Source: a virus. Taken from it: 41,775 nt of DNA. Of the stretch, positions 1-41,775 are shown piece after piece. The stretch is taken from UHGV virus genome UHGV-0209075. The stretch is one strand, 5' to 3'. The notes beneath the pieces are model-generated. The model searched no databases. It saw only the letters and a list, made by a program, of their open reading frames with translations, and was not told the DNA's origin. A program made the translations under genes and the position numbers. The number at the start of each line of letters is the position of its first letter. Position 1 is the stretch's first letter.

Positions 1-58
1 CTGAGGGTGCAGAAATCCCTCCGGTTAAGGATTAAATTTTTAACAGAGCTAAATTTAA

Positions 59-415
59 TTATTCAGTTCTGGATTTTGTCGCCCTGCGTATCCGCGCTTT
101 CGCGTTACGCTCAATCTGAATTAGCTTTTCTATATTTTTTCGCCTTTCCCGCTCCTCCTGGCGCAAGTGCCTTACATCATCTGCCAGTCTGGTTTCTCTT
201 TTCGCCACAGAGAGCATCCAGTCAAATGGCTCCACAACTGCACCGCAGATTTTACAGCGGACCTGACGCTCTTTTTCGTCAACCCGGACAGAGGCGTGAT
301 GACAATATGGTCTTTCCGATGGCTCATAAAGAAAATTAACCTGATTACGTGGGTCATCCTCTTTTACCGGAAATAAAACAATATTACTTAACTCATCTTC
401 TGGATTTATTTCCAC
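59..415 (-). CDS. nin-region small protein with Cys/His cluster (PYCHH...CKIC) and basic coiled-coil C-terminus; function unknown
   Basis: ORF-track ORF 59..496; start placed at GTG 415 preceded by AAGGAG with 6-nt spacer, 1 nt after the TGA of the upstream gene (translational coupling). Confidence 0.5.
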   Translation of the reverse strand: MEINPEDELSNIVLFPVKEDDPRNQVNFLYEPSERPYCHHASVRVDEKERQVRCKICGAVVEPFDWMLSVAKRETRLADDVRHLRQEERERRKNIEKLIQIERNAKARIRRATKSRTE

Positions 416-416
416 G

Positions 417-926
417 TCACTCTCCTTTGATGCGAATGCCAGCGACGCGTGGCACATTAACTTCCACAATGCGCACAGTTGGTTTGTACATCTCAATTGC
501 TGTCAGCCAGTCAGCGCCAGTCATGCGCTTTTCTGCATCGCCATTAGTCCACTTAACCGGTACACCAATAGCCTTCATCGCGATTTCTATTTCCCCGGCA
601 ATGGCGCTTTTTCCGCAACCAGTAAAACCAGAAACAACGACAAGAACTTCGCCTTTGGCTGGTTTTATTTCCCGTGCTTCCAGTTCTGCAATGCGCTTCT
701 CTGCGGCTTCCAGCTCAACACGCAGCTTCCCTACCGTTAGCGCAATTTCCTCGTTCTCCTGATCGCGGCGTTTTATGTATTGCTGGTTTCTTTCCAGTTC
801 ATCCAGTAATGCCAGCACAACCTGAGGTGTGACCTTCATACGAAATGCCAGCAATTTTTGTGGTGTGGCTGCTATTTTTATTGCTTCTGCCGCCCCACGC
901 AGTGCCTGATAGTCAATCTTGCTCAC
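417..926 (-). CDS. coiled-coil protein with Walker-A-like GFTGCGKS motif; function unknown (nin region)
   Basis: ORF-track ORF 417..956; start placed at GTG 926 preceded by AGGAGG with 6-nt spacer, overlapping the stop of the upstream gene by 14 nt. Confidence 0.5.
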
Positions 927-1656
927 TGGTTGCCTCCTGGCAAAGTTGGGCGACAATATCGCGATATTTATTCAGCTCCCGCAGCGCGGCACATACTCGC
1001 TCCCATTTCCGGATATCACTTTTCGCCCGACGCAGTTCGCGGTTTGCCTGTCGCAGCGATGGCAGAACCAGATTATCCACTCGCTTCTCAAGCGGCTGCA
1101 CAATGCCCGCCACAGTTTCTGTTTTAATATCTTCCTGTGTTGCAGCTTCCTGTACTGGTAACGCAACACATGCAGGCTGAGGAAAGGCTTTACCATCAGT
1201 TTCCGCTACCGATGCCGCTTTCGGCTCTGCTGGTAAATTACCGCCCGGCATGCAGTAACGAAATTTACCGTTCTGATTAACACGAATCAGACGACCTTTG
1301 CTGATTGCCATTGCCAGCGTTGAAGCCACTTTGCGGGATGTTGTACCGAACAGCGTAGCCAGTTCATCCGCCGTTTGTGGTCCGCGTTGTTCAATCGTCG
1401 CGGTTAAATCGCACTCTGAGATTTTCGCTACTGTCGCCGTGGTGGTTTCTTCCGGCTGTTCTTCTGGCGCTGGCTGTTCCTGCTGAACGTTGTTATCAGC
1501 CACACGCCAGGTGTATACGCTTTTATCAACGAAGCCAGCCTTTTTCAGTTCCCACAGCTCGTTCAGTACTTCTTCACGACTGATATCAAGTCGCGCAGCC
1601 AGCTCTACCGACGTGGCTTTTCCCATCGCTTTCAGTGCGTCAAAAACAGTCTCCAT
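913..1656 (-). CDS. putative winged-helix DNA-binding protein (resembles DUF1627-type prophage proteins), nin region
   Basis: 247-aa ORF with GGGAGG SD; N-terminal ~60 aa look like a wHTH ([28 protein letters not shown]), Pro/Glu-rich linker, coiled-coil C-terminus. Confidence 0.5.
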
Positions 1657-1688
1657 AAATTTCCTCCCGGTAAAAATTACTTCTCAAC

Positions 1689-2354
1689 TCAAACAAAACC
1701 AGCCGCTTTCCGGCGTTCATACTCCTGTTTCAGCAACTCAATTGGCGTTGGTCCCGACGGGCGTTTGGGTGCCGCCAGTTGTCGCCGGACTGGCGGAATG
1801 CTCAGGCCATTACCAACATGCTTTGCCCATTTCGTCAGTTGCCATTCTGCAAGCCGTTTTAGCTCCCCTTCGGTCATCTGGCGCTCAATCCCCTTTGAAC
1901 GCATCTCGAGGCAAATGTGATACAGCACAGGCTGAGACCACGGGTACTTATCACTTCCGTCATATCGCCAGGACTCATTGCGCCAGCGGCGGTACTCCTC
2001 CATCACAGCATCCACCGTCAGACCGAATGGATTGGCTCCGCTTTCCGAAATCAGTGCGACAAACTCAGCCAGGTCCGGAGGCCATGTTTCACCCGCCCGG
2101 CAGCGGTCCATGCACTGGCGGCAGACCTGTCGGATTTGCTGCTCAGTCATCGCGCCAATCTGTGCAATCCAGAGCTTCGAAGGTGCGGCCCCGTTCTTCT
2201 GGGTCCAGCGGTTCGAATAAACCTCCCCCATGAGCTCCCACAGCTTCCACGCCGTTTCCGTCGCTGATAAATCCGTTTTCACGTTCCCACTGCTCACGTG
2301 CTGCCCGAATTTCCTGAACTGCCCGTGATGCGGTGCCACCTGGTGCGGCTGCAT
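1689..2354 (-). CDS. replication protein P-like (helicase loader)
   Basis: Immediately downstream of O-like gene; C-terminal half resembles lambda P by eye (YPW motif, basic C-terminus); start uncertain (ATG at 2354, 2231 or 2150) because the longest ORF overlaps the O-like ORF by 212 nt. Confidence 0.6.
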   Translation of the reverse strand: MQPHQVAPHHGQFRKFGQHVSSGNVKTDLSATETAWKLWELMGEVYSNRWTQKNGAAPSKLWIAQIGAMTEQQIRQVCRQCMDRCRAGETWPPDLAEFVALISESGANPFGLTVDAVMEEYRRWRNESWRYDGSDKYPWSQPVLYHICLEMRSKGIERQMTEGELKRLAEWQLTKWAKHVGNGLSIPPVRRQLAAPKRPSGPTPIELLKQEYERRKAAGFV

Positions 2355-3156
2355 GGCTCACCCCCTTGCTGACTGGTTTAACCTGTGCCCTGACGTGATT
2401 TACGTGACGGGCGAATTTCTGCTCCCACTGAACCTGCGTGAAAACTTTCCCCTCCGCTGCCCAGTAGTCCCGGAAAGTGGCAAGTTCAGCAGGCGTAAAT
2501 TCCGGCTCCGACAGAGCCACTCCCCACAGTGCAGCCCGCCGTCGAAAATCCGGCGACGGATGCCAGCCATCGGTCATCGGAAATTTCCCGATGGGTTCGC
2601 TCAGGCCTTCCAGGTAATCAGGTTCCGCTGCCTGCAACGGCACGCCATTCGACTCACTGATCGGAGCACTCTCGCGCACGCGCGCGTTATGTGTGGGGTT
2701 TAATTCTTTTAGATCTGTATCTTTATTAGTTGCTTTTGTGTTGGCATCATGTTCAAACACAACACCAACATCTGTTTGAACACCTGTTAAATCTCTCTCT
2801 TGTTTTGTTTGAACATCTGCTTCCTTTCTGCTTCTTCTGGCTTGAACAGATGCTTTTCCGGCGGCTGATTTTTTGGTTAATTTTTCCCTGACTGATGCCA
2901 GATCTTCCTCAATCCGAAGATGCACCCATTCATCGCCGTTATCGCAAAAAAACTCCCTCAAGGATGGTTCCACATCAGCCCATCGCTCGTTAGTCAGACG
3001 GGCAATTTTTGCCAGCCTGTTTTTGGGTATTGGCTTCCCTGTTTGCCAGTAATTGAACATCAGCAACAAATACGCACCGTGCTCCTCTGCTGACAAATGC
3101 ATGGTGTCAGCCAGGTAATCAGCTATGTACAGTTGCATGTATGGTAATGCGGCCAT
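2143..3156 (-). CDS. replication initiator O-like protein with DUF1376/YdaU-type N-terminal domain
   Basis: N-terminus MAALPYMQLYIADYLADTMHLSAEEHGAYLLLMFNYW typical of phage replication-initiation DUF1376 proteins; ATG 3156 preceded by GAGGTGA; synteny cro-cII-O-P. Confidence 0.6.
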   Translation of the reverse strand: MAALPYMQLYIADYLADTMHLSAEEHGAYLLLMFNYWQTGKPIPKNRLAKIARLTNERWADVEPSLREFFCDNGDEWVHLRIEEDLASVREKLTKKSAAGKASVQARRSRKEADVQTKQERDLTGVQTDVGVVFEHDANTKATNKDTDLKELNPTHNARVRESAPISESNGVPLQAAEPDYLEGLSEPIGKFPMTDGWHPSPDFRRRAALWGVALSEPEFTPAELATFRDYWAAEGKVFTQVQWEQKFARHVNHVRAQVKPVSKGVSHAAAPGGTASRAVQEIRAAREQWERENGFISDGNGVEAVGAHGGGLFEPLDPEERGRTFEALDCTDWRDD

Positions 3157-3235
3157 GTTCACCTCATCTGGTGCCGAACCTTCCTCTGGTTATAATCTGT
3201 GATCCCCCAATCAACAGAACCAGAGGAGGTTCGAC

Positions 3236-3631
3236 ATGGATTTTGCAACTATCACAAGTAGCGTTGTGTTGAGTGCATGTGTTGCTGGCGTGGTTTCGCT
3301 GGTTAATGGTGCCTGGCAACGCAAATCGGAACGAACCATTGAAGCGCAACGCCGGGCTGCTGAAGCCAGGGCTAAAATAAGAGAAATGGCTCTCACCCTC
3401 GCATTGAAAGAATGGGAACTTCACCAAACCATATCGAAGACAAAGGGATATGGTGTCAGCGGCCCGGAAGTTTACGTCTTTCGATACTTTCGTATGCTCA
3501 ACCTGATGGAAGAAGACAAATTCACGATTGAAAATCTCAGACTGATCCAGCACGACTCCATGTGCGCCGTCGCAGCGATTCAGGCAGAGATCGAGCGATA
3601 CCGGGAGAAAAACGGCCTCCCGATGCCATAA
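3236..3631 (+). CDS. membrane-anchored protein of unknown function (cargo gene antisense to the replication operon)
   Basis: ATG 3236 preceded by AGAGGAGG (6-nt spacer) and a TATAAT hexamer at 3191-3196; residues ~5-24 hydrophobic helix, then Arg/Glu-rich helix and ~70-aa C-terminal domain. Confidence 0.6.
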   Translation: MDFATITSSVVLSACVAGVVSLVNGAWQRKSERTIEAQRRAAEARAKIREMALTLALKEWELHQTISKTKGYGVSGPEVYVFRYFRMLNLMEEDKFTIENLRLIQHDSMCAVAAIQAEIERYREKNGLPMP

Positions 3632-3635
3632 GCAA

Positions 3636-3836
3636 TCAGTGTTTTTCATCTTTCCAGATCCTCATATCAGGCTTTCGCCCGATGAACCGGCGAAAACAAT
3701 TTAAAATCCATCGGGTGAAGTAATCCCTGAAACCAAAGAGATACCAGGTGAACAGATTCACGATAAAATGTCCGGCCAGAGCCCCACCGATACCACAGGC
3801 AAGAACAGTAAAAAGATCATGTAGATTCACAGGCAT
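3636..3836 (-). CDS. small hydrophobic protein (66 aa, one predicted TM helix, basic C-terminus)
   Basis: ORF 31 nt downstream of cII-like stop, convergent with 3236-3631 (stop codons 4 nt apart); weak SD so coding status uncertain. Confidence 0.3.
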   Translation of the reverse strand: MPVNLHDLFTVLACGIGGALAGHFIVNLFTWYLFGFRDYFTRWILNCFRRFIGRKPDMRIWKDEKH

Positions 3837-3867
3837 CCCCCGTCATTGTTAACACCGTCTCGTACTT

Positions 3868-4293
3868 TTAGTGCATCACCACGGCATTTCCCGCCGGACC
3901 ACCACGATTCATCTGATTGAAACCAGCGATCGCCACTGCAACAAAATCATCAGCGTCTCTCACCAGTCGTTCCCGCGTCTCCACCAGTTCCCGAAACCAG
4001 GCTGAACTGTGGCTGCGCATTCGGGCCACCAGCAGAGGCGGCATTGCTTTTTCGATCGCTGGTAACAACGCCTGAATTTTTTTAACCGCATCAGGGGTGT
4101 CTTTCTCCACCCAGCGGAAAATTTTCTGAGTATTGCGAGCCAGGGCTTCCGGATGGCTGTCGTCATACAGTTCCGGGAACGTCATTCCCAGCTCGAAATA
4201 CGCTTTGGTAATTTTCGCAGCCGGTACTTTTTCGCCGTCCGGATGCGCCCAGGCATTCATCGCCATGCGGATGTGTTCATGCTTGATTTTCAT
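3868..4293 (-). CDS. CII-position regulator, resembles YdaT-family proteins of Rac-like prophages
   Basis: 141-aa ORF translationally coupled to cro-like gene (start/stop overlap at 4290-4293); N-terminus MKIKHEHI; synteny. Confidence 0.5.
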   Translation of the reverse strand: MKIKHEHIRMAMNAWAHPDGEKVPAAKITKAYFELGMTFPELYDDSHPEALARNTQKIFRWVEKDTPDAVKKIQALLPAIEKAMPPLLVARMRSHSSAWFRELVETRERLVRDADDFVAVAIAGFNQMNRGGPAGNAVVMH

Positions 4294-4505
4294 GAATCAT
4301 TCTTTCCTTCGTTCGAGGTGCTATCCTGCTTCTTGTAAAGTTCTGGGTTGTATTTCAATTCACCGTTAGTAATTTCATCCAGTTCCATTGCGCGAAGTTT
4401 GGGAATAACTGCTTGCCACCGCACAACAGCCACATGTGAAATTCCAAGAGCCTCAGCTACTAGTCGCTTTTTTTTGAAATAGCGCAGAACATCATCTTTG
4501 AACAT
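4290..4505 (-). CDS. Cro-like HTH regulator (YdaS/Cro type)
   Basis: 71-aa ORF divergent from repressor; HTH segment KKRLVAEALGISHVAVVRWQ; AGGAGA SD 5 nt upstream of ATG 4505. Confidence 0.7.
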   Translation of the reverse strand: MFKDDVLRYFKKKRLVAEALGISHVAVVRWQAVIPKLRAMELDEITNGELKYNPELYKKQDSTSNEGKNDS

Positions 4506-4534
4506 AAAACTCTCCTGTTATTTCGAGCAGGAGG

Positions 4535-4596
4535 GTAACAATAGTTACATAGCAATGTCAACCATAGCAACATCACTTGGTAGTAACATTGGTTAC
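4535..4596. promoter_or_regulatory. OR-like operator region: two 14-bp dyads GTAAC-N4-GTTAC (4535-4548, 4583-4596) in the repressor/cro intergenic region
   Basis: GTAACAATAGTTAC and GTAACATTGGTTAC, centre-to-centre 48 bp; the second abuts the repressor ATG at 4597. Confidence 0.5.
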
Positions 4597-5271
4597 ATGA
4601 AAAACACTATCAGCGAACGTATTCGGAATCGTCGAAAAGACGTTGGATTAACCCAACAGCAGGTTGCGAAAGCAATCGGCATATCTCGTGTATCCGTAAC
4701 AAAATGGGAAAATGGCTCTTCAAAACCTGACGGTGAGAATTTGCATCTACTGTCAAAATTGCTTTCCAAATCTCCTGAATGGATTCTTTATGGAAAGGAC
4801 GGTCACGATAAAACCGATGATCTGCGTCTGAATCAGTATCTTTACATTAGTGACAACATCGCCCGGTTGCCCGTTTTAACGTGGGAACAGGCTGGTTATT
4901 GGGATATGAGTTGTCCAGTAACCGAGATTCCTGGCATTAAGAATTGGGTTGATGTCATGACAAAAACCGCTGAAAACTCTTTTTTATTGCATGTTGAGGG
5001 AGATGCGATGACAAACTCTAACGGCCTCCCAACCATCCCCGATGGATCTACCGTGCTGATCACACCATGCTCAAGTAACATTAGAGAACTGGTGGGAAAA
5101 ATAATCTTAATCCAATTGGAAGGAACGCCAAACGTAACACTAAAAAAAGTTGCGATTGACGGACCAAACATCTATCTGTTGTCACTGAATCCGCTTTACA
5201 AACCCATCGAACTGAATGGTGGTTACACCATTAAAGGTAAAGTTTCACAAATACATCAATACTTAGACTGA
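4597..5271 (+). CDS. cI: CI-type repressor (HTH_XRE N-domain + LexA/S24-like C-domain) with Ala at the nucleophile position (GDAM instead of GDSM)
   Basis: HTH LTQQQVAKAIGISRVSVTKWENG; C-domain motifs HVEGDAMTNSNG and VTLKKV align by eye with lambda CI EVEGNSM / FTFKKL; start taken at ATG 4597 (ORF-track ORF begins at TTG 4498). Confidence 0.8.
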   Translation: MKNTISERIRNRRKDVGLTQQQVAKAIGISRVSVTKWENGSSKPDGENLHLLSKLLSKSPEWILYGKDGHDKTDDLRLNQYLYISDNIARLPVLTWEQAGYWDMSCPVTEIPGIKNWVDVMTKTAENSFLLHVEGDAMTNSNGLPTIPDGSTVLITPCSSNIRELVGKIILIQLEGTPNVTLKKVAIDGPNIYLLSLNPLYKPIELNGGYTIKGKVSQIHQYLD

Positions 5272-9751: not shown

Positions 9752-9955
9752 ATGAGTAGCTTATTTTTAACCGAAGATGAATTGCTAATATTAACGGGCT
9801 GCAAATATGCAAGCCACCAGCGAAAATGGTTAACGGAAAACGGGCTTCCGTTCTATACCAATCGTAGTGGCAAACCGATTGTCAGCCGGGATCTATTTAC
9901 CTGCAATAAAACTTTACCACCACGCGAGGTAGAGCCGAATTTTGGTGCAATCTGA
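9752..9955 (+). CDS. excisionase-like small DNA-binding protein (candidate recombination directionality factor)
   Basis: 67-aa ORF whose TGA overlaps the integrase ATG (TGATG at 9953-9957); position immediately upstream of int; weak SD. Confidence 0.45.
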   Translation: MSSLFLTEDELLILTGCKYASHQRKWLTENGLPFYTNRSGKPIVSRDLFTCNKTLPPREVEPNFGAI

Positions 9956-10980: not shown

Positions 10981-10987
10981 TTCCAAG
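10952..10987 (+). repeat. direct repeats ATTCCAAG (x3, including tandem 13-mer AAAATATTCCAAG x2) at the int 3' end; fourth copy at 11199-11206; candidate Int arm-type sites
   Basis: Copies at 10957-10964, 10970-10977, 10980-10987 and 11199-11206, all in the same orientation, flanking the att core on both sides. Confidence 0.4.
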
Positions 10988-11032
10988 TGTGATTTTTGTC
11001 ACTGACTTAATGATGTGTAAGTGATTGAATTT

Positions 11033-11093
11033 TGGCGGAGAGAGGGGGATTTGAACCCCCGGTGGAGTTGCCCCCACTCCGGTTTTCGAGACC
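11033..11093 (-). other. attP core: 3' ~61 nt of a tRNA-Ser(CGA)-like gene (anticodon loop to CCA) without the 5' half
   Basis: Minus-strand GGTCTCGAAAACCGGAGTGGGGGCAACTCCACCGGGGGTTCAAATCCCCCTCTCTCCGCCA has anticodon loop, long variable arm, T-arm GGTTCAAATCC and acceptor 3' strand plus CCA; sequence 5' of it is not tRNA-like. Confidence 0.6.
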
Positions 11094-11394
11094 GATGATA
11101 CAGAGTCGAAAAATCAAAGAGTTAAAAACTTTTCTTGGAATAAATGTCTTAAAATCGTACACGAAAAATCAATAAATTACATAACATTAAAGAAGAATAT
11201 TCCAAGCCTTCTTGAGGCCACCACCTGTTTTCAGGTGTCATTCAGACGTGATTTACCCCAGATTGGGTAAGCACGCTTTTTTTCTCAGCTTATTCCGTTT
11301 TGCCTGTGTGTTGAATAATTCCACTGCAGTTATATAAAATCGGTAACGGCTGGAAATCATTCAATACTAGCACTATCGAAAGTTAACCAGCCAA

Positions 11395-11731: not shown

Positions 11732-11740
11732 CTGCTCCCC

Positions 11741-30298: not shown

Positions 30299-30445
30299 GT
30301 TTTCTCCTCATGGACACCACCAGTGCATAAAGCAGCAACAAACAGCCCGACAGCATCAGAGACGCTGGCAGACCTGCATACAGATAAACGCCAGCAGTGA
30401 GCAAACCGAAACCGATCAGCCCGGTCATATCAGTAATAAGCTGTT

Positions 30446-32203
30446 TCACAGAATTAACAGGTCCTCATCAGGATCAAGCGTGGACAGAAAGTCATTCACG
30501 CCCCCTCCATTTACCAGAAAGCGGCTCATGGCTGTAAAAAGCGCAACAGGGCCGTCGATTTTGGCTTCCGGCGTGGATTTATTCGGGAAGATGTTGTCGT
30601 TTTTGTCCGGTTTTACAGTAACGTTAGACATCATCCAGTTCATGACCGGATGATTGCTGTGATGGAAACGCCCGGCATAAACCAGTGATTCCGTTTCCTT
30701 CATGGCCTCTGACAGATTGCGGACCGTCTGCGGAACCTCCACCAGCGGTATCCCTTCTTCAGCCAGTGCCAGGCTGAACTGCATTGCGCTCCACGGGTCA
30801 AATCCCAGTTCCCTGAGGTTTTCACCGCCAATCCATTCCAGTAAGTCACTTTTTATCTGAGCATGATCGATAACATCACCATCCGTCAGGATGAGCTTAT
30901 CCATCTCCGCCCACTTCCGGTAAAGTTCTGCCTGCTGCCGCGAGCATCGTTCCAGCCGTCCTTCCGGAAGCCAGAATTTAAAATCAGCATGAACATGTCC
31001 GTTATCGGTTCGCCAGAGTTTTGCCGCCGCACAGATATCAATCTTATGAGCAAGGTCGACGCCGACCCACATGGGATATGTTTTCAGCTCATGTTGTGGA
31101 GCAATGTATTCGCACTTCTCCCACTTAATCATATCCATCCAGGCAGATTCGGCAGTGACCCACACATTCATGTGTTTGGTAAAAAAATTCACCCGCGCAG
31201 AGACCTGCTCCTTCGCTTTTTTCGCCAGACGACGCAGATCATCCCAGCGTTTACAGATGCCCAGGCCAGGATTCGCTTTCTGCCAGACCGTTTCATCAAA
31301 CGGATCATCTCCCTCATCAAGCGTGTAAATGATCGCAAAGTAAGAGTCGTCTTTTACAGCGCCCTCCACGTCGCTGTTATAGCCTCGCAATACCTTGATG
31401 GCGTAATCACGCTGCTCGTAACAAATCCCTTCCTTGTTAAAGCCAGCCGTGGTGATACCAAATAACAGGGACTGCAGACGGGCACCGGTTGCCGTTTCCA
31501 GAACGTCCCACACGTCGCGGGTTTTATGTGCATGCAGCTCATCAATAATGGCGCAGTGGATGTTCAGACCGTCCAGGTTGTTTGCATCCGAGGAAAGCGG
31601 TTCAAATTTTGATGCGCTCTGCTCCTGGTAAATCGCCAGCTTGTTGAAATCAAACAACCGCCCGAGTGTCGACCGGGCTTTTCTGACCATATTTTTGGCG
31701 TCTTCAAACACGATTCTGGCCTGGTCACGCGTGGTTGCGGCTGAATACACCTCAGCTCCGCCTTCACTATCTGCCCCCGTCATATACAGGCCGATACCCG
31801 ATGACAGTGTTGATTTTGCGTTTTTACGGGCGACTTCGTTGTACGCCGTCCGGAACCGGCGCACCATCACCGGACGTCCGCTGCCATCGCTGCGCATGAC
31901 AACTTCCCCGGTTTCTTCATTGACCAGCGGAATGACAAAACCAAAAATATTAATGAGGATAAATACATGCCAGTCCATCAACTCAATGGGCTGGCCTGCC
32001 AGTGCCCCTTTTACATGAGGCACAAATTTGTAGAAATTCAGGATGTGCTGCGCACGGGGTTCACTGAAATAAATCCCCCGCTTTTCGCCGTACTTCAGAT
32101 CATCAAGAAAACGCTGGCAGGCCAGGCGGACAAATTCGCCAGCAACAATTTCTCCTGCAACAACACGTTCGGCGTAGCGGATCCCGTCAGCCACTTTTGC
32201 CAT
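30446..32203 (-). CDS. terminase large subunit
   Basis: 585 aa; start overlaps TerS stop (TGATG). Confidence 0.9.
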   Translation of the reverse strand: MAKVADGIRYAERVVAGEIVAGEFVRLACQRFLDDLKYGEKRGIYFSEPRAQHILNFYKFVPHVKGALAGQPIELMDWHVFILINIFGFVIPLVNEETGEVVMRSDGSGRPVMVRRFRTAYNEVARKNAKSTLSSGIGLYMTGADSEGGAEVYSAATTRDQARIVFEDAKNMVRKARSTLGRLFDFNKLAIYQEQSASKFEPLSSDANNLDGLNIHCAIIDELHAHKTRDVWDVLETATGARLQSLLFGITTAGFNKEGICYEQRDYAIKVLRGYNSDVEGAVKDDSYFAIIYTLDEGDDPFDETVWQKANPGLGICKRWDDLRRLAKKAKEQVSARVNFFTKHMNVWVTAESAWMDMIKWEKCEYIAPQHELKTYPMWVGVDLAHKIDICAAAKLWRTDNGHVHADFKFWLPEGRLERCSRQQAELYRKWAEMDKLILTDGDVIDHAQIKSDLLEWIGGENLRELGFDPWSAMQFSLALAEEGIPLVEVPQTVRNLSEAMKETESLVYAGRFHHSNHPVMNWMMSNVTVKPDKNDNIFPNKSTPEAKIDGPVALFTAMSRFLVNGGGVNDFLSTLDPDEDLLIL

Positions 32204-32685
32204 CAGTCTCTCGCTTTTAAAAGCTCTGCCAGCGGATCAACATTATCCGGTCCGGCGGTATTTACTTTTGCCCGGCTTGCCGGTGACATACCAAATTCTG
32301 CAAGCATCGCCCGGATCCGCTTCCAGGCATCCGCTTTCATCGCAGCAGCCGGGTGTGCCTTAATCAGCACATCACCGTTCTGCGTTTCCGAGCGGTAGGT
32401 GTACCCCTCAACATCGAGTGTTTCGCAGTGATGCCGGTATTCGGTATAGGCTTCCACCAGTAGCTCAAGCGCACGCGCATCAAGCTGAGAAATGATCCCT
32501 TCCGCATTCAGCTCTTCCGCCATTCGCCTGAACCAGTACTTCCCCTGCGCCCCTAAATGTTGCGGAATTTTAGGGAGACCTTTTTCATCCTTTTTAGCGG
32601 TTTTTTTGAGGTCTTTAACTGGCCGCTTTGAGGGGTTGCCTCGTATCAAATGCAGGCGTGGCGGGATTTTCGGGGGTCCAGACAT
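32203..32685 (-). CDS. terminase small subunit (P27-like)
   Basis: 160-aa basic ORF immediately upstream of TerL. Confidence 0.8.
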   Translation of the reverse strand: MSGPPKIPPRLHLIRGNPSKRPVKDLKKTAKKDEKGLPKIPQHLGAQGKYWFRRMAEELNAEGIISQLDARALELLVEAYTEYRHHCETLDVEGYTYRSETQNGDVLIKAHPAAAMKADAWKRIRAMLAEFGMSPASRAKVNTAGPDNVDPLAELLKARD

Positions 32686-32832
32686 AATCGGTTTTACCTA
32701 TCAATCATTTAATCACATTCCAAAAAAAAGTTTTCGAACCTGCGGCGATGCGAGGAAAGGTCAGGCGGCGGTACTGAGCAGCCAGGGTTGCAGAGATTTG
32801 ACCCGCCCCTCCCCTACAGATGGGAACTGTTA

Positions 32833-33183
32833 TCAATTGATGCGTTCGCGCGCTGTTTTTGCTTTATGACAGGGCCAGCACAGACTCTGCAGGTTACTGT
32901 CTGCATCTGTGCCACCATGAGCTTTCGGAATGATGTGGTCCACAGTTCTGGCTTCAACGGCTCTCCCATTGCGCAGGCAGTTCTGACACAGATGATTATC
33001 ACGCTTCAGTATGCGCGCACGTATGGCATCCCATTTCGAGCCATAGCCACGCTGGTGGCGGCTCAGTCCGCGTTGATGCTGTACCCATCCTTCGCCACGA
33101 TGTTTATCGCAGTAACCAGAACTGTCTGTGGTTGTACCTGCACATCCACGCTTACGGCAGGCGCGTGGGATTAGTGCTGGCAT
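32833..33183 (-). CDS. HNH endonuclease (terminase-associated)
   Basis: DHIIPKAHGGTDADSNLQSLCWPCHKAKT HNH motif plus N-terminal Cys cluster; immediately upstream of TerS as in HK97-like cos phages. Confidence 0.85.
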   Translation of the reverse strand: MPALIPRACRKRGCAGTTTDSSGYCDKHRGEGWVQHQRGLSRHQRGYGSKWDAIRARILKRDNHLCQNCLRNGRAVEARTVDHIIPKAHGGTDADSNLQSLCWPCHKAKTARERIN

Positions 33184-33321: not shown

Positions 33322-33861
33322 ATGGATATTAAAGATAAAATCAATACCATTTTGTTATGTGACATTGCCATCCACCTAGGTATCGAAACTGATATTGATC
33401 CACAGCTTGTTAAATATGCTGTGTCATCTGGTAATGATTGGGTTATCAAGGCCGAATATTCACATTTGGATGTTGACGAACCAAGTAAAGAAGATCGTGA
33501 TTTTGTTACTGCTGTCTTGAATATGTATCGCGGACTTTCCAATGCTTTCAGGAAACTTAGTGATGACGAGCAAAAAGAATTAGTCCGTGACCATCATCTA
33601 AAAATACATGATGGGGCAATTCAGCTCCCAGGTTTCGACGGTAATAATGAATGCGATTACTTCAGTATCATTGAGGCATATCAGAAAATTGATCGCTTCC
33701 CCGAACAGAAACAGCCCATTGCCAATACTCATTCACGTACAGAACATCTCTATAACGCAATGCTTGATGAGTTTAAGAAAATTGACGCTGTAAATCGAAG
33801 CTGGGATTTATCGAAGGAAGAACTGGCATCCATTCTTTCCACAGCTCCACGCAGTTTCTAA
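33322..33861 (+). CDS. YfbU-like (UPF0304-like) protein, AT-rich cargo gene antisense to late operon
   Basis: ATG 33322 preceded by AGAGGG (7-nt spacer); by-eye resemblance to E. coli YfbU as I recall it; about 38% GC. Confidence 0.5.
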   Translation: MDIKDKINTILLCDIAIHLGIETDIDPQLVKYAVSSGNDWVIKAEYSHLDVDEPSKEDRDFVTAVLNMYRGLSNAFRKLSDDEQKELVRDHHLKIHDGAIQLPGFDGNNECDYFSIIEAYQKIDRFPEQKQPIANTHSRTEHLYNAMLDEFKKIDAVNRSWDLSKEELASILSTAPRSF

Positions 33862-34288: not shown

Positions 34289-34756
34289 TTATCTGAGACA
34301 TTGCTCACGAATGTATAGCTGTGCCCCTTCCAGTTGCTTCTGCATCGTCATCAACCGTTCTCTGAGGGTGAAATAATCCCGTTCAGCGGTGTCTGCCAGT
34401 CTGGGGCTGGTTGCATTATCCACGCTGGTGGGTCCGGTGGCTTCACGCACGGCTGCGGAGCAACTGGCATTGACCCGCAGGCGCTTACGACCAGCGGCAA
34501 CATCAGCGCGCAGAGTTTCATTTTCAGCTTTCGCATTGGCTAATTCTCTCGAGTACTTTGCATCGAGCGCAGCAACATCACGCTGACGCTGTTGCATGTC
34601 AGCGATGGTGGCAGTCGCCTGCTTCAGCTCACTGACTTTTTTATCACGCTGTTCTTTGTAGGCGATGGCGTTATCACGGTAATGATTGACCGCCCACGAC
34701 AGGCAGACGATGGTGCAGATAACCAGAGTATAAATAATCGCTGCGACTCTGCTCAC
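34289..34756 (-). CDS. Rz: i-spanin Rz
   Basis: GTG 34756 overlapping endolysin stop (GTGA), GGGGGA SD; N-terminal TM helix, periplasmic coiled-coil; contains embedded Rz1. Confidence 0.8.
34351..34536 (-). CDS. Rz1: o-spanin Rz1 (lipoprotein) embedded in Rz in a different frame
   Basis: [20 protein letters not shown] lipobox followed by Pro-rich mature peptide. Confidence 0.75.
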
Positions 34757-35286
34757 TGATCTATCCCCCAACAGGCTAATGCGCTTTCCTGGTCACGACG
34801 AATAACCTGTCCATAGCAGTTATTTGAACGTATGCGGCAATCGCGCCCACCATCTTTTATCCACCAGCGAATCGCCTCGCATGCGCCCTTACGATCACCG
34901 GCATTCAGCCGCTTATAAAACGTCGACGGGAAACACTTACCGGGGCCAATGTTATAGGGACAGAATGACGCTATACCCGCTTTCTGTGGTTCGGTCAGTG
35001 GTACTTTAATATTGCGCTCTACCCATGCCAGCGCCTTATCACGTTCAATAGCGTTAACCTGGTCGCATTTTTCCTTCGACAGCTTCATTCCCGGTATGAC
35101 GGGCTTACCATCCACCATTGTGGCACCCCGACAGATGGTCCAGATGCCGGCCCCATCGCGGTATGCCGTTGTGTGGTTACCTTCTTTTTCATCCAGAAAC
35201 TGGTCGAGAATATCAGGCGCGGGCGCACCGACGGCAATCAGTGCCAGAACGGCAGCCGACAGGCCGTATCTGATTTTTGCGTTCAT
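34753..35286 (-). CDS. R: SAR endolysin (phage-21-type lysozyme)
   Basis: N-terminal signal-anchor-release helix ([15 protein letters not shown]) and E-x8-D-x5-T catalytic triad ([16 protein letters not shown]). Confidence 0.85.
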
Positions 35287-35349
35287 GGATATTTATCAGG
35301 ATTTATCGGTTTCTGCCCACGGACAGGTTTATCTGTTCCGGTCAGTGAC

Positions 35350-35700
35350 TTAAGGTTGTGATTCCGGAGGAGTCTTCAGAGAACCAGTAATTCTTCCTGG
35401 TAGCTTTCCTTTGTAGGTTATCCACACATTCTGCGCCTCTAAAATTACGGGGCGCTTTTCCGGCGACTGCTCATCCCCTTCACATAACCCGGCAGCAACA
35501 TCCAGGAAGACCTGTCTGATGCTCCTTCTGGCTGCTGCCTCATAAAACCCCAGCGCGGCACCTTCAACACGGTCCAGCGAGATGTCCAGGTCAAAAATTT
35601 CACCGTCAAAGCGTTTTTTGTCCCGTAACGCTAAAGTTACCGTAACTTTATTCTCAAAATTGCGGATCCCTTTCACAATCAGTTCATAGTTTTGAGTCAT
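35350..35700 (-). CDS. hypothetical protein (116 aa) between holin and endolysin
   Basis: ATG 35700 preceded by GGGGAGAG, 4 nt after holin stop; soluble-looking. Confidence 0.5.
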   Translation of the reverse strand: MTQNYELIVKGIRNFENKVTVTLALRDKKRFDGEIFDLDISLDRVEGAALGFYEAAARRSIRQVFLDVAAGLCEGDEQSPEKRPVILEAQNVWITYKGKLPGRITGSLKTPPESQP

Positions 35701-35704
35701 TGAA

Positions 35705-35920
35705 TTACTCTCCCCGTGCAGCCTTACGACGGTCCTCTCTGATTTTGAAATACAGGTTAGTCAGATATGTCAGGAAGCCCAGAACCAGACTCCCCAGTAC
35801 ACCAATCGCAGCCCACTGTGACGGACTGACCTGATCAAGCCACTGTAAAAACCAGTAGCCAGCACTGCCTGCGGAGGTGCCGTAGGCAATGCCCGTTGAA
35901 ATTTTATCCATGGATTTCAT
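35705..35920 (-). CDS. S: pinholin/antiholin S21-type with dual start (MKSM)
   Basis: From ATG 35920 (GGAGGTGA SD): [29 protein letters not shown]; two TM segments; second Met at codon 4. Confidence 0.85.
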
Positions 35921-36055
35921 AGCCTCACCTCCGCAGCGAACGGATGGCGTAGTTATAAGGGGAGCGAAAAAGAAAGAATGCGCGATTGCGCAATATGGTA
36001 ACGTCAGGGTATTATCCACTGGCTGAATAGATCACTTCACGTTTTTTGTTCCTTG

Positions 36056-36085
36056 CCGCCCGTATCCATATGCGGGCTTTTTTTT
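36056..36085 (+). terminator. hairpin + T8 on plus strand upstream of holin
   Basis: GCCCGTAT...ATGCGGGC followed by TTTTTTTT. Confidence 0.4.
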
Positions 36086-36090
36086 GCATG

Positions 36091-36121
36091 TAAAAAGGCC
36101 CCAACACATGTGCGTGGGGCC
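36091..36121 (-). terminator. hairpin + U-tract on minus strand between cargo ORF and holin
   Basis: GGCCCC-13 nt-GGGGCC followed on minus strand by UUUUUAC. Confidence 0.45.
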
Positions 36122-36517
36122 TGAGAGTATACATGGTTTCAGTCAACTGCATGGTGCCGGGTGCCTCCCGGTGAATTCAGTACCAGCACCTGAATCCGCG
36201 ATTATCCCATATACCTACTCGCTGATTGCCCCTCCGCACAGGGGGATTCACCATGCCAGTTTCTTTTAACAAACTCCCCGCAAACCAGACAACAGTCAAC
36301 CGCCTGAATTGTGAAGTATTTAAAAATTTCTCCCGCTAACTGATACCCGGCTAACAGTCTGGCGTTTTCTTTTTCAGCAACGGGAAAGCAACAACCACCA
36401 CACCCGCCACCAGCACACCGTCAGCCAGCACTGACATTATCCGGCTGCTGCAATGCCACTCACAAAAACAGTAAGCAATCACTTTTTACCGTAACAAGTG
36501 ATAATCCAGATATGTAT

Positions 36518-36844
36518 CTACCCCAGATGAGTAATCCGAAGTTCATCCATACCACAGGTCCTGGCTATTCTGTTGTACTCCTGAACAAGAGCAAATAATT
36601 CTGAATTAGCAACCATGAACTCATCGCAAACCCTCTGAATAGCATCACTATTCAGAATAATAACGTCTCTTCCCGAAAGACGATCAGGAGTACAGAACAA
36701 AACTGTCAAACGGCTGAAGGCCTTTGCTCGTGCTGCATTGACTATATCAATACGCTGCCTAAGGATGAAACACCCCGACGCCTCATCAATATTCACTCTA
36801 CCCACACCATATGAATGATAAATATTTAATGCTGAAAAAACCAT
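36518..36844 (-). CDS. hypothetical protein (108 aa), AT-rich cargo ORF at the stx-equivalent position
   Basis: Only ORF >60 aa in the 36126-36984 gap; about 40% GC; no clear SD at either candidate start, so coding status uncertain. Confidence 0.35.
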   Translation of the reverse strand: MVFSALNIYHSYGVGRVNIDEASGCFILRQRIDIVNAARAKAFSRLTVLFCTPDRLSGRDVIILNSDAIQRVCDEFMVANSELFALVQEYNRIARTCGMDELRITHLG

Positions 36845-36984
36845 TGGACCGTATAACAAACACTCAATCAATACTTAACAGAACTTTTATTTTTGACAAA
36901 CATATAATATTTTCAACAATATCCTGAGCCAGGTATATTTCAGTATAAGGCTCTGCCGGAAGGAATCTGGAAGAATGAATATAG

Positions 36985-37058
36985 CGCGCTGTACTGGATT
37001 CGAACCAGTGACCGATTGCTTAGAAGGCAATTGCTCTGTCCGGCTGAGCTAACAACGC
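36985..37058 (-). tRNA. tRNA-Arg (anticodon UCU)
   Basis: Hand-folded cloverleaf: acceptor GCGTTGT/ACAGCGC, D-stem GCTC/GAGC, anticodon stem ATTGC/GCAAT with loop CTTCTAA, T-arm ACTGG-TTCGAAT-CCAGT. Confidence 0.8.
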
Positions 37059-37158
37059 TGAATACCGATAATGGACCGCCATCGGGGACCCGCCCCCGCA
37101 CCAACAACCCTGTTATCGCGTCGTCTGCTCTTCCTGATAAGCTAATGGCGGTTTGTGA

Positions 37159-37234
37159 TGGTGGCCCTTGCTGGATTTGAACCAGCGACCTGGCGATTAT
37201 GAGTCGCTCGCTCTCACCACTGAGCTAAAGGGCC
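37159..37234 (-). tRNA. tRNA with CAU anticodon (Ile2/lysidine-type or Met), CCA encoded
   Basis: Hand-folded cloverleaf: acceptor GGCCCTT/AAGGGCC, anticodon loop CTCATAA, T-arm GCTGG-TTCAAAT-CCAGC; resembles E. coli ileX by eye. Confidence 0.8.
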
Positions 37235-37270
37235 GGGAGCAGAATAATAACGGTCCGTAATTAATTCCGC

Positions 37271-37296
37271 AATAAAAAACCCGCTCGGCGGCGGGT
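37271..37296 (-). terminator. tR'-like terminator about 50 nt downstream of the candidate late promoter
   Basis: ACCCGC-tcggcg-GCGGGT followed on minus strand by UUUUUAUU. Confidence 0.5.
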
Positions 37297-37336
37297 TGTA
37301 GAAACTCTTCTAACGTCAGGCATAAAAGGCCCATCG

Positions 37337-37372
37337 TTATGACGAATTTACCACAGATTCCGGAAAAATCAA
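37337..37372 (-). promoter_or_regulatory. candidate late promoter PR' (Q-dependent) just downstream of Q
   Basis: Minus-strand TTGATT (37372-37367), 16-bp spacer, TAAATT (37350-37345). Confidence 0.4.
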
Positions 37373-37377
37373 CCTTG

Positions 37378-38199
37378 TTACCTAGTTACCTTTTTTAACT
37401 GCCGCTCAGCCCATGCTTCTTCAATATCAAACCGGGTCACCAGCGCATCATAGAATTTCTTAACTGTTTTTTCCCATGACGCGCGTGTTATCTGGTTTGT
37501 CACCTCGCATATAGCATTAAATGCCTCCGTTGATGGCAGCCTTTCACAGCCACGACCACCACAACGCTGGCAATCTCTGATAACAGGCATACCACGTTTT
37601 ACCGACTCTTCACGATGAATGGCGACACCACGCCCACGGCAATCCTTACAGGCGGTGGAAACCTCACCCTTTCCGCCACACTCCGGACAGGCAACTTTTA
37701 CCACCTCCCTGACTTTTTTCCATTCTTCCCAGTAAGACGGATACACGCCTTTTGTGCACTTTGCCCACACTGGTGGCTTACCATCCGGATACTGGATCTT
37801 GTTTGTAAAAACCTCGCTTTCAATAAATTTTTTTCCGTGACAGCAGGGGCACTGTTTTTTGCTCGCCGCGCTACGGGCATAATCTTCAAACGCATACGAA
37901 GCCATAATGCGCATCACTACCGGTTTTATTTCTGCCGGAAGTTTTCTCAACGCCGCCACACGATCGCACCGACTGAGTGCATAATCTGCCAGTAATTCTG
38001 TTGCCCGCGCCCTGTCATTCATACTGATGCCCATTTTCCCCAGGAACGCAGAAAACCCCATCTCAGCCCGATTCTGTGTCATGCCCTGCGCGGCCATCAC
38101 ATCAGTGATACTCAGCGCATCTTTTGACGTTGAGGCCGATACATCGGTCAGGCCAGGGGATTTTGGGGAGTAGTATTTCGGTAAATCTTCCAGTTTCAT
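37378..38199 (-). CDS. late antiterminator Q (zinc-binding, resembles Quu-type prophage antiterminators)
   Basis: N-terminal YSPKSPGLTDVSA...TDVMAAQGM and multiple CxxC pairs; start overlaps rusA stop; followed by PR'/tR' candidates. Confidence 0.75.
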   Translation of the reverse strand: MKLEDLPKYYSPKSPGLTDVSASTSKDALSITDVMAAQGMTQNRAEMGFSAFLGKMGISMNDRARATELLADYALSRCDRVAALRKLPAEIKPVVMRIMASYAFEDYARSAASKKQCPCCHGKKFIESEVFTNKIQYPDGKPPVWAKCTKGVYPSYWEEWKKVREVVKVACPECGGKGEVSTACKDCRGRGVAIHREESVKRGMPVIRDCQRCGGRGCERLPSTEAFNAICEVTNQITRASWEKTVKKFYDALVTRFDIEEAWAERQLKKVTR

Positions 38200-39629: not shown

Positions 39630-39630
39630 G

Positions 39631-40383: not shown

Positions 40384-40479
40384 CCTCAAGCACCCGCAGC
40401 AATTCTACTTAAGTTAGATAAGCTTTTCTATGGTATTCTCTCAGCGTCCCGTAAATACAGTCTCGGCTCATCATTTTTA

Positions 40480-40737
40480 TCACAGGTGCGAGGAAAATAT
40501 ATAGCGCCCTCCATCAAGCATAACGAAATACATTTTCCATTCATCGCCATTCCTCAATTTAATACGAAGACTTTCCCCGCAAGTGTATTTATTAAACAAC
40601 TGTTCCGATGTGCTAGTAAGAGGTATTTTTACCGTTATTACAACTACTGCCCCACCATTTAACTCTCGAAGTTCAGCATCCGCATCCACAAAAGATGAAT
40701 AAATGTTATGATCTGGGTAATCAACAATTAACTGCAT
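40480..40737 (-). CDS. hypothetical protein (85 aa), AT-rich cargo gene
   Basis: ATG 40737 preceded by AAGGAG (5-nt spacer); about 33% GC. Confidence 0.5.
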   Translation of the reverse strand: MQLIVDYPDHNIYSSFVDADAELRELNGGAVVVITVKIPLTSTSEQLFNKYTCGESLRIKLRNGDEWKMYFVMLDGGRYIFSSHL

Positions 40738-40876
40738 ATTCACTCCTTAAATATAGCAACTAAAACAAACAACGATTTAACAGTAGGAATTGTTTTTATA
40801 ACATATGAACGGTGCAAGATCTATCCAGATGAAGCCTCCCCTCACACCCCCCGTCTCATTACATGCATTTACTATC

Positions 40877-41392
40877 TCACCGTAAAACATCCTCCACGCT
40901 TATCAGTCCGTTTCGCTTCAGGTAGTCCATCGCCTTCTCCGGTAATTTGCAGTCCGGCTTGGCTTTTTTCAGTTGGCTGACCAGTCGTTTAACCCACATT
41001 GTTAATTCGCTAACCTGATTGCCGGAAGCTGGTGGGTTGTCGGCTTTACCCAGAATGACAGCACTGCAGGCCTCTTTGAGTACCCAATCAACAGCATCTT
41101 TCCATGCTCCTGTTTCGACTGGTGGATTCTCACGCTTTACCTGTTCATAAAAGCGCACGGCTTTAACCAGTCCTTCTGATGTCAGTGGCACAGGCGGGGC
41201 AGTGAATAACGCCTGAATTTCATAGCTCGGCCTGTCGTTGCAATCCTCTTTTGTCGGTACATATTTCCAGTCACCAACCCACGGCTCCCCCTGTGAGTCC
41301 GTAATGCCTTTTTTCACGTAGCGATATCGCCATGCAACTGGTTTTGCCTGCCCTGCCGTTTCATGCCCTTCCTGATAATTAATCTCACTCAT
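40877..41392 (-). CDS. hypothetical nin-region protein (171 aa)
   Basis: Start ATG overlaps stop of upstream small ORF (translational coupling). Confidence 0.5.
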   Translation of the reverse strand: MSEINYQEGHETAGQAKPVAWRYRYVKKGITDSQGEPWVGDWKYVPTKEDCNDRPSYEIQALFTAPPVPLTSEGLVKAVRFYEQVKRENPPVETGAWKDAVDWVLKEACSAVILGKADNPPASGNQVSELTMWVKRLVSQLKKAKPDCKLPEKAMDYLKRNGLISVEDVLR

Positions 41393-41565
41393 TCATCGCC
41401 CCACTCATCACAATATGCTTCGACCGGAGTTTTTCCTGCTTCATAATCATCACGCCATGCTTCAGCATCAGCGGCACTTCCACCGCGTAACTCTGCATAA
41501 TCCATTAACAGTTCATGCCATTCTTCAAAACTGGCGTTATATTTAGTTGAACCAAAATCAGCCAT
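41389..41565 (-). CDS. hypothetical small acidic protein (58 aa), not in ORF track
   Basis: Hand-translated MADFGSTKYNASFEEWHELLMDYAELRGGSAADAEAWRDDYEAGKTPVEAYCDEWGDE; start overlaps upstream stop and stop overlaps downstream start. Confidence 0.3.
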   Translation of the reverse strand: MADFGSTKYNASFEEWHELLMDYAELRGGSAADAEAWRDDYEAGKTPVEAYCDEWGDE

Positions 41566-41740
41566 TTTGCTCTTCCTCTTCGTCTTTTATTTCGTGATAT
41601 GAGTAATTGCAGTAGTTAAAGAAAATTTCTTTTGCTTCGTCCTTTATTTCATCTGGTGTCGCATCATCATCCACTTCGAATTCATCCTCGAAATCTCCAC
41701 CGGCTATTTCCGTTTCAATAATTATTTTAAACTTTCGCAT
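41558..41740 (-). CDS. small highly acidic protein (60 aa), AT-rich
   Basis: ATG 41740; about 35% Asp/Glu; upstream AGGAGG separated from the ATG by a GC hairpin CCGCCC-gaaa-GGGCGG. Confidence 0.45.
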   Translation of the reverse strand: MRKFKIIIETEIAGGDFEDEFEVDDDATPDEIKDEAKEIFFNYCNYSYHEIKDEEEEQNG

Positions 41741-41775
41741 TTAACTACCGCCCTTTCGGGCGGCCTCCTGATGTT

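Follow-up and report, generated by a model that had tools for sequence, protein, structure and literature searches.

The stretch of viral DNA analysed here, which is 41,775 nt long and is referred to below as the window (UHGV virus genome UHGV-0209075), carries an integrase gene and an attachment core in its interior, and this raises the question of the form in which the phage was present when it was sequenced. The best explanation, to which we give a probability of roughly 0.84, is that the window covers one temperate lambdoid siphovirus of E. coli over exactly its genome length, as a circle that has been opened between two nin-region genes at an arbitrary place, with its recombination module in the excised form and with a template that was circular or head-to-tail. 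The window is neither a virion map nor a prophage map; it is one arbitrarily opened circle.

That the window is a whole phage genome with an internal attP, as stated in the original prediction, is borne out by the anatomy of the attP, by the breakpoints of related prophages, and by the ends, which abut in relatives. The unit and its modules outside the recombination region are as follows.

1–41775, no single strand: complete lambdoid temperate phage unit in circular permutation, the opening being in the nin region; ends abut in relatives, no repeat exceeds 41 nt, and all modules are present
1689–5271, both strands: immunity and replication, with P-like 1689–2354 (minus), O-like DUF1376/DnaT 2143–3162 (minus), YdaT-like 3868–4293 (minus) and CI-type S24 repressor 4498–5271 (plus), from Pfam
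11444–14079, minus: distal part of the tail genes (two small ORFs plus the side tail fibre), from Pfam phage_tail_N, PHROGs 1443 and 1361, and homologous M15 annotation
29072–33183, minus: packaging module, with HNH endonuclease 32833–33183, small terminase 32203–32685, large terminase 30446–32203 and portal 29072–30298, from Pfam
34289–38199, minus: late control and lysis, with Q antiterminator 37378–38199, tRNA-Met(CAT), tRNA-Arg(TCT), holin, lysozyme and Rz

A CI-type repressor, O/P, nin, Q, lysis, head and tail genes are present in lambda-like order, as identified by Pfam and by homologous RefSeq annotation, which is the organization of a lambdoid temperate phage. The layout combines lambda-type regulation, replication and tail with a head and cos-packaging module of the phiP27/HK97 type. 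The distal tail genes do lie on the opposite strand beyond the attachment core, as had been noted, and the 12016–14079 product (minus strand) matches Pfam phage_tail_N at 1.3e-67.

The position at which the record opens was thought to lie inside minus-strand nin genes at both edges, which is wrong. The joint between positions 41775 and 1 falls in an intergenic nin-region spacer of about 90 nt, between the stop of the ORF at 59–496 (minus strand), 58 nt away, and the ATG of a DUF7167-type gene, 32 nt away, and no plausible minus-strand ORF crosses the joint.

41744–41775, minus: upstream half of the intergenic spacer where the record opens, continuing at 1–58; within it are the hairpin CCGCCCTTTCGGGCGG and a Shine-Dalgarno sequence serving the nin gene that follows

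The proposal that the gene order closes on itself is upheld by the relatives. A 1322 nt query across the joint gives one ungapped match in 1029 E. coli records, and an exact 49-mer over the joint is present in at least 120 IMG/VR contigs. When the window is rotated to open at the attachment core it is collinear throughout with the one prophage that E. coli strain M1/5 has at serU, in which 41,394 bp lie between the core copies, and one alignment block spans the end and the start of the window. The circular closure would thus follow from the relatives, in which the ends are adjacent with no gap, overlap, duplication or host DNA between them, as in a complete circular (or permuted) phage genome. 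There is no terminal overlap between the ends of the window, and a repeat search of the 41,775 nt found no duplicated phage segment; since the longest internal repeat is only 41 nt, the window is exactly one unit, in keeping with the suggestion that about 41.8 kb fits one lambdoid genome. No host genes were found anywhere in the window, edges included.

The recombination region itself has the following parts.

9752–9955, plus: excisionase-like gene with a stop overlapping the int start; Pfam DUF4224 (2.8e-16) and PHROG 1266 'excisionase' (2.4e-21)
9955–10980, plus: tyrosine integrase gene, lambda-Int architecture, 341 aa; predicted nucleophile Tyr317, with Lys at the lambda Arg311 position
10941–11032, plus: P arm, in which three candidate arm-type Int sites in direct orientation (ATTCCAAG at 10957, 10970 and 10980) overlap the 3' end of int
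11033–11094, minus: attP core, which copies serU tRNA-Ser(CGA) from the 5' strand of the anticodon stem through to the terminal CCA, with the tRNA sense strand on the minus strand; as seen when aligned with the K-12 attB and with the two prophage junctions of CFSAN067215
11076–11094, no strand: inferred strand-exchange segment, the anticodon stem-loop ACTCCGGTTTTCGAGACCG, from the segregation of two variable-arm differences
11095–11402, plus: P' arm, with IHF-consensus sites at 11112–11124 and 11167–11179 and candidate arm-type sites at 11134–11141 (inverted) and 11199–11206
11252–11271, plus: terminator-like hairpin and T-run downstream of int beyond attP (z = -2.4), with a function that is only inferred

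The core had been placed about 50 bp after int at 11033–11093. Its position stands, beginning 52 nt past the int stop, but its end is at 11094, so that it is 62 nt in length and not 61. Its reverse complement corresponds to the 3' portion of the E. coli serU tRNA-Ser(CGA) gene, with 60 of 62 nt identical to the K-12 attB (2 mismatches); serU corresponds to the host tRNA-Ser gene that was to be sought as attB. The 62 nt identity block is seen in a four-way alignment of attP, attL, attR and attB, in which two compensatory polymorphisms segregate. It runs from the CGGTC of the anticodon stem to CCA, and prophages have a complete tRNA-Ser annotated where they join the host on the int side, as befits an attP that restores the tRNA gene from the anticodon stem-loop to its 3' end. 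A class of tRNA-gene attP with a sublocation at the anticodon loop is reportedly described by Williams in 2002. ARAGORN finds no full tRNA at the core, the only tRNAs in the window being tRNA-Arg (36984–37058) and tRNA-Met (37159–37234), and a search of the core against Rfam gives no tRNA match, only a sub-threshold plastid element on the plus strand, antisense to the serU fragment. Neither of the two observations named beforehand as refuting the original prediction, host genes flanking an edge or a complete tRNA-Ser overlapping the core, is thus seen.

On the int side, the homology of thousands of related prophages ends at 11094, past which their sequences go on with serU (its 5' half) and mtfA, a tRNA-Ser being annotated at this stop in, for example, all of hits H34–H50. 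On the tail side, the homology of relatives begins only at 11018/11025. That single prophages lose homology exactly at the core block on either side indicates a true attP. Together with the collinearity with M1/5, this supports the reading of the order P arm, core, P' arm as attP, and not as the attL or attR of a single prophage. The integration site of the prophages is between yodB/zinT and mtfA. The same P-core-P' junction is present in 3 IMG/VR contigs, 5 metagenome contigs and 10 of 5426 complete E. coli chromosomes. This attP form is absent from all 50,697 phage genomes.

The two variable-arm differences are compensatory (11064, G vs A; 11075, C vs T), the phage type remaining on the int side of the prophage and the host type on the tail side. 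From this segregation, which is not absolute in that two attP-type contigs (L133 and L135) carry the host-type bases, the crossover would be narrowed only to 11076–11094.

Five of the six copies in the window of the octamer ATTCCAAG are within 10957–11206, where they flank the core; 1.77 copies would be expected by chance over the whole window. The IHF consensus WATCAANNNNTTR has only three matches in 41.8 kb, two of which are in the P' arm and the other in the cos spacer. These distributions suggest roles for the octamers as arm sites and for the consensus matches as IHF-binding sites. Homology between the P' arm and those of other phages extends to 11290–11402. A second hairpin is present at 11395–11426, and both hairpins are placed like lambda tI/sib.

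The third IHF-consensus match falls within the region in which a cos site is predicted.

32686–32832, minus: predicted cos region in the spacer between terS and the HNH gene; the phiP27 cos-site equivalent is at about 32761–32770 and the IHF-consensus site at 32699–32711, from homology to the phiP27 cos-site (AJ298298.1)

An HNH gene is present beside the small and large terminase genes, and the HNH-terS spacer aligns with the annotated cos-site region of phiP27; the predicted cos is placed by the 82.6% identical homology and by the match to the IHF consensus. The sequence of the window is unbroken through attP and through the predicted cos region (32686–32832). This continuity across both sites means that the template was circular or head-to-tail DNA, and neither a single integrated prophage nor a cos-cut virion map.

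The integrase reported at 9955–10980 on the plus strand is indeed a 341 aa ORF, and it matches Pfam Phage_integrase (PF00589) over residues 183–317 with an E-value of 4.5e-11 (43.3 bits, against a gathering cut-off of 27.1) and PHROG 1 'integrase' at 1.2e-53. Its alignment with lambda Int (structures 1z1b and 5j0n) extends over the whole protein, the N-terminal arm-binding region included (phmmer E-value 1.7e-12). The N-terminus, MGRRRKNPEHEKLPPNVY, aligns with MGRRRSHERRDLPPNLY of lambda, which would suggest an arm-binding domain to accompany the repeated candidate arm sites. At the C-terminus, the motif GHKTEGQVLIY(317)DR corresponds to GHKSDTMASQY(342)RDD of lambda; the HMMER alignment includes the GHK, and the motif is conserved in homologues. 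Tyr317, which is past alignment position 313, we take to be the equivalent of lambda Tyr342 from the sequence and from that of lambda Int. Of the catalytic triad, Arg I (AARVSD) and the His are present and Arg II is replaced by Lys (FHDLK vs FHELR in lambda). Of the 120 best homologues, 81 have FHDLK, which would make the Lys a trait of the subfamily and not a lesion. The 341 aa frame and its KYSK tail are kept in homologues down to about 60% identity.

In every relative examined, RefSeq labels the integrase as 'frameshifted', and this label and the Lys at Arg II could be read as signs of an inactive Int. A true frameshift in int is rejected, as the frame 1 ORF runs uninterrupted over 9955–10980, an opening in the alternative frame comes no earlier than 10904, past the codon for Tyr317, and the KYSK tail is conserved in distant homologues. 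The RefSeq label is probably an annotation artefact, and the conserved features of the protein suggest an active Int.

From the topology, att anatomy, breakpoints and gene content established above, a cycle may be proposed. The recombination module is in the un-recombined order xis, int, P arm, 62 bp core, P' arm. Int, with IHF bending the arms, would carry out strand exchange with the chromosomal serU in the anticodon stem-loop part of the core. Integration would leave int beside a reconstituted serU with a phage-derived 3' part, with the displaced host 3' fragment beside the tail-fibre end. Int and the DUF4224 excisionase would then bring about excision, regenerating attP as it is in the window.

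The original prediction named a circular or concatemeric genome, an excised episome and a tandem-lysogen junction as alternatives. The data narrow the physical form to one exact closed unit, for which a free circle, a concatemer and a tandem lysogen collapsed by the assembler would look alike in sequence alone. In the last case, two or more head-to-tail prophage copies at serU would have been reduced to one circular unit and the attP would be an internal junction of the array. Such arrays exist: E. coli strain M15 has the order zinT, prophage 1, int, attP, prophage 2, int, serU, mtfA, with 42,557 bp separating the two occurrences of the terminase genes and with an attP that over 421 nt is 100% identical to the window, and the P-core-P' junction is present in nine further complete chromosomes. 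For STEC O121:H19, both the tandem insertion of two prophages at a single site and prophage integration at serU have been reported (PMC8767318). However, neither the doubling of phage genes around attP nor the host flanks in the same molecule that would mark a chromosomal tandem-lysogen junction are seen in the window, which lacks host DNA and duplicated phage segments and is exactly one unit long. Junction-bearing arrays are also rare (10 of 5426 complete genomes), and that of M15, the sole array here traced to both host flanks, joins two different phages and would not collapse to a clean circle. An assembly graph containing attL, attR and attP would, moreover, normally be expected to break contigs at the core and not in the nin region. 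A collapsed array is therefore unlikely.

It is very improbable that the attP was never a physical junction and was generated in silico, by a predicted prophage being cut out, end-joined and rotated. The window does open at an intergenic point, as it would with gene-boundary-based tools, but manual joining of attL to attR would double the core or leave host bases, and there is exactly one core. Both polymorphic positions are of the phage type, and the same P and P' flanks are found in independent contigs and chromosomes. Maintenance as a stable extrachromosomal replicon, as a phage-plasmid or in a carrier state, in place of integration, might be suggested by the circular topology and by the lack of this attP form from the phage records of the reference collection. 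Against this, no partition or plasmid-replication domain is present among the ORFs scanned, on which ground a phage-plasmid was rejected, the replication genes resemble lambda O/P, nothing is missing from the int-xis-attP module, and the plasmid collection contains no close match. The exact RecE-like exonuclease just upstream of int, with the 341 aa int ORF, is integrated beside mtfA in all 10 contigs inspected, and the int-attP stretch is 100% identical in integrated prophages (H34–H37). Exact-protein matches to the 824 aa exonuclease and to a 131 aa ORF, both of which are common proteins, are in chromosomal prophage contexts only. Such a replicon is hardly to be expected here. A further suggestion is that the source population keeps the phage mostly off the chromosome or in a recombining multi-copy serU array, the attP form being dominant and not a by-product of spontaneous induction, and being maintained by an integrase subfamily with a natural Lys for the second catalytic Arg; this is quite unlikely.

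The preferred reading, one excised genome unit opened in the nin region, involves nothing beyond ordinary biology: the phage is a new mosaic of a well-known kind, and no new biological question arises from it. The window provides an excised-form reference, with attP, candidate arm sites and a predicted cos, for the serU-integrating lambdoid lineage, a very common prophage of E. coli. The practical value is modest, and clean primer design is possible for attP, attB, attL and attR assays.

Among known systems, the tandem double lysogen of E. coli M15 (NZ_CP185789.1) shares the identical attP junction (421/421 nt) and has 97.8% identity over 90% of window positions 1–25000, and in the phage, plasmid and complete E. 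coli collections this array is the only record covering at least 80% of those positions. It differs in its chromosomal location and in consisting of two prophages that are not identical (their immunity and replication genes differ, and there are IS insertions), bounded by zinT and serU-mtfA. Phage phiP27 (AJ298298.1) and the HK97 type share the order HNH endonuclease, cos, P27-family small terminase, large terminase, portal, protease, capsid, but nucleotide similarity to phiP27 is confined to the HNH/cos stretch (82.6%), the 10 nt cos sequence is not conserved, and the cos of the window is predicted.

As in the Int/Xis/IHF system of lambda, int and xis adjoin attP and are transcribed towards it, repeated candidate arm-type sites are present on both arms, IHF-consensus sites are on the P' arm, and beyond attP there is a terminator-like hairpin, placed as tI/sib is in lambda. 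The overall order of tail, attP, int, recombination, immunity, replication, nin, Q, lysis, cos and head is also that of lambda. Unlike lambda, which has a 15 bp core and the gal-bio intergenic region as its site, the window has a core of 62 nt from a tRNA gene. Its Int is a distant relative with Lys at the Arg311 position, its excisionase is a DUF4224 protein, and its arm-site motif, ATTCCAAG, differs, with three copies overlapping the end of the int coding sequence.

The serU lambdoid prophages (M1/5, NZ_CP053296.1; CFSAN067215, NZ_CP028320.1; 'Escherichia phage SerU-LTIIb', KU052038.1) have the prophage order, with attL, attR and a complete serU, where the window has the excised permutation. 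Their immunity/replication and Q-tRNA segments are mosaic replacements, and just 85% of the window aligns with M1/5. They share with it the same core, the same site between yodB/zinT and mtfA, tail and head modules that are 99.3–99.7% identical, and an int-xis-exonuclease block that is up to 100% identical over 2095 nt.

The window is best read as the whole genome, in circularly permuted form, of a lambdoid phage that integrates at serU, with its attP intact. That a whole phage genome with an internal attP is present, as the original prediction had it, is supported by the breakpoints at the att site, by closure in relatives, and by the lack of any duplicated segment. The integrase gene is where it had been placed, and the expected order of int, a core shortly after it, and the distal end of the minus-strand tail module is also seen: TGGCGGAGAGAGGGGGATTTGAACC...TTTTCGAGACCG starts 52 bases past the int stop and the distal tail genes come next. 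In sequence, the core corresponds to the 3' portion of serU tRNA-Ser(CGA), read as its reverse complement.

Features of the att region
9752-9955, + strand: DUF4224 gene, 67 aa, the stop of which overlaps the int start; excisionase PHROG (2.4e-21)
9955-10980, + strand: int, 341-aa ORF
10789-10803: FHDLK codons, residues 283-287, coordinates counted from Tyr317 (10903-10905)
10957-11206: ATTCCAAG candidate arm sites, three direct in the P arm (int side), one inverted and one direct in the P' arm (tail side)
11112-11124 and 11167-11179: IHF-consensus sites in the P' arm
12016-14079, - strand: side tail-fibre ORF with a prophage tail-fibre N-terminal domain

A 4-kb query across the att site matches 5519 E. 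coli records and all but a handful of these matches end at window position 11094, with a tRNA-Ser annotated beneath the end; matches of the other arm start at 11018 or 11025. This marks the site as a real attP. Five of the six copies of the ATTCCAAG octamer in the window are within 10957-11206, with 1.77 expected per 41.8 kb, and the IHF consensus WATCAANNNNTTR has only three matches in the window, two in the P' arm and one in the terS-HNH spacer; the surroundings of the core look like those of a working attP. Downstream of int and past attP are two terminator-like hairpins with T-runs (11252-11285 and 11395-11439, + strand), which are contiguous with int only when the phage is excised and are in the same position as the tI/sib retroregulation of lambda.

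When the window was aligned with both junctions of a near-identical prophage in E. coli CFSAN067215 and with the empty serU site of K-12, the block of identity was 62 nt, 11033-11094, beginning with the 5' strand of the anticodon stem and extending as far as the CCA end. The predicted core (11033-11093, 61 nt) therefore had the correct start, but not the correct end. A complete tRNA-Ser over the core, which had been named as evidence to the contrary, was not found by ARAGORN, which identifies only tRNA-Arg and tRNA-Met in the window, at 36984-37234, or by Rfam. The two mismatches between the window and K-12, at 11064 and 11075, lie in the variable arm and compensate for each other. In the CFSAN067215 prophage, phage-type bases are at the int-side junction and host-type bases at the tail-side one, which would place strand exchange rightward of 11075, inside ACTCCGGTTTTCGAGACCG, though not absolutely. 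Two metagenome contigs with the P-core-P' junction (L133, 5644-5770; L135, 534-660) have the host-type A and T at the variable-arm positions, so the split of the two polymorphisms between the arms is not fixed.

The int product matches Pfam Phage_integrase above threshold in a profile search and aligns over its full length with lambda integrase structures, with Lys in the position of Arg311, the second catalytic Arg of lambda Int. Among the 120 best homologues, which come from many Enterobacterales, 81 carry FHDLK, which would make the Lys a trait of the subfamily and not a lesion; a whole subfamily of integrases thus seems able to function with Lys there. In every relative inspected, int is called "frameshifted" by RefSeq/PGAP (1051 nt, reaching window 11005). 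Against a real frameshift are the 341-aa frame, open from end to end, the alternative frame, which opens only at 10904, past the Tyr317 codon, and the KYSK C-terminal tail, which is kept in homologues to about 60% identity. The annotation is probably misled into this label by the 13-nt repeat AAAATATTCCAAG, present in two copies inside the coding end of int (region 10941-11005) and also a candidate arm site.

The ends of the window do not overlap, and the longest repeat inside it measures 41 nt. A 1322-nt query joining the last and first bases has a single ungapped match in 1029 E. coli records, and at least 120 IMG/VR contigs contain the exact 49-mer over 41775|1. The suggestion that the edges are inside genes was slightly off, as the joint is intergenic, 58 nt past the stop of ORF 59-496 and 32 nt ahead of the next nin gene's ATG; 41775|1 is not spanned by any credible ORF on the minus strand. 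Within this opening spacer (41744-41775 plus 1-58, nin region) a GC hairpin, CCGCCCTTTCGGGCGG, overlaps the Shine-Dalgarno of the downstream gene. When it is opened at the core instead, the window aligns collinearly and all in one orientation with the single serU prophage of E. coli M1/5, whose core copies are 41,394 bp apart. The alignment covers 85% of the window at 85-99.7% identity and includes a 98% block that extends from window 38882 across the end as far as 450.

In the head module, the genes are arranged as HNH endonuclease, P27-family small terminase, large terminase, portal.

Features of the predicted cos region
32686-32832: terS-HNH spacer, 147 nt, aligning with a phiP27 stretch that carries an annotated cos-site
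32699-32711: IHF-consensus site in the spacer predicted to hold cos, the only match outside attP

This alignment places the predicted cos-equivalent position at about 32761-32770, and the IHF-consensus match recalls the IHF site of lambda cosB. A virion map would end at cos and a prophage map at att. The window is unbroken through both the predicted cos region and attP, and is thus neither virion map nor prophage map but an arbitrarily opened circle.

The arrangement had been attributed to a circular or concatemeric phage genome, an excised episome, or the junction of a tandem lysogen. The genuine serU array of E. coli M15 (NZ_CP185789.1, 1264000-1348600) has two different lambdoid prophages head to tail, in the order zinT, prophage 1, int, attP, prophage 2, int, serU, mtfA, with the terminase genes repeated 42,557 bp apart. 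The immunity and replication genes differ between these prophages, as do the IS insertions, the first prophage having IS903B and IS5, and the internal attP stretch is identical to the window (421/421). The P-core-P' junction is in the chromosome of 10 of the 5426 complete E. coli genomes, and in three IMG/VR and five metagenome contigs, with none in the reference phage collection. For STEC O121:H19, prophage integration at serU and the insertion of two prophages in tandem at one site have both been described (PMC8767318). The alternatives are therefore all biologically real. The window amounts to precisely one unit and has neither host DNA nor duplicated genes, which favours a closed circle in the assembly, though an assembler could still collapse two identical tandem copies into such a circle. 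In CFSAN067215, the flank at the tail-side junction (L123, 1-4020; NZ_CP028320.1, 3044000-3048020) is not yodB but an island with H-NS-like, DUF6387, and HTH proteins, and has TGTAAGTGATTGA in common with the phage P arm, which suggests another integrative element in series at serU in this strain.

From tRNA and Pfam searches and homologous annotation in relatives, the window has a full and unremarkable lambdoid gene set: a CI-type S24 repressor, a YdaT-like gene, and O-like (DUF1376/DnaT) and P-like replication genes; the nin genes Ead/Ea22, DUF1627, DUF968, and RusA, with a Q antiterminator; two tRNA genes; holin, lysozyme, and Rz; and the head and tail genes, including J, Lom, and the side tail fibre. 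Neither a transposase nor a host gene was seen in the window. A YfbU-domain ORF (33322-33861, + strand) between the lysis genes and HNH, and a 131-aa ORF of unknown function (3236-3631, + strand) between the O-like and YdaT-like genes, are opposite to the minus-strand operons, apparently in the manner of morons; the exact protein sequence of the latter is widespread in E. coli assemblies. For every module, near-identical counterparts exist among public E. coli genomes. Relative to the reference phage collection, from which both are absent, the particular mosaic of the window and the excised form of its attP are new, while its general kind, the serU-integrating lambdoid phage, is already well known.
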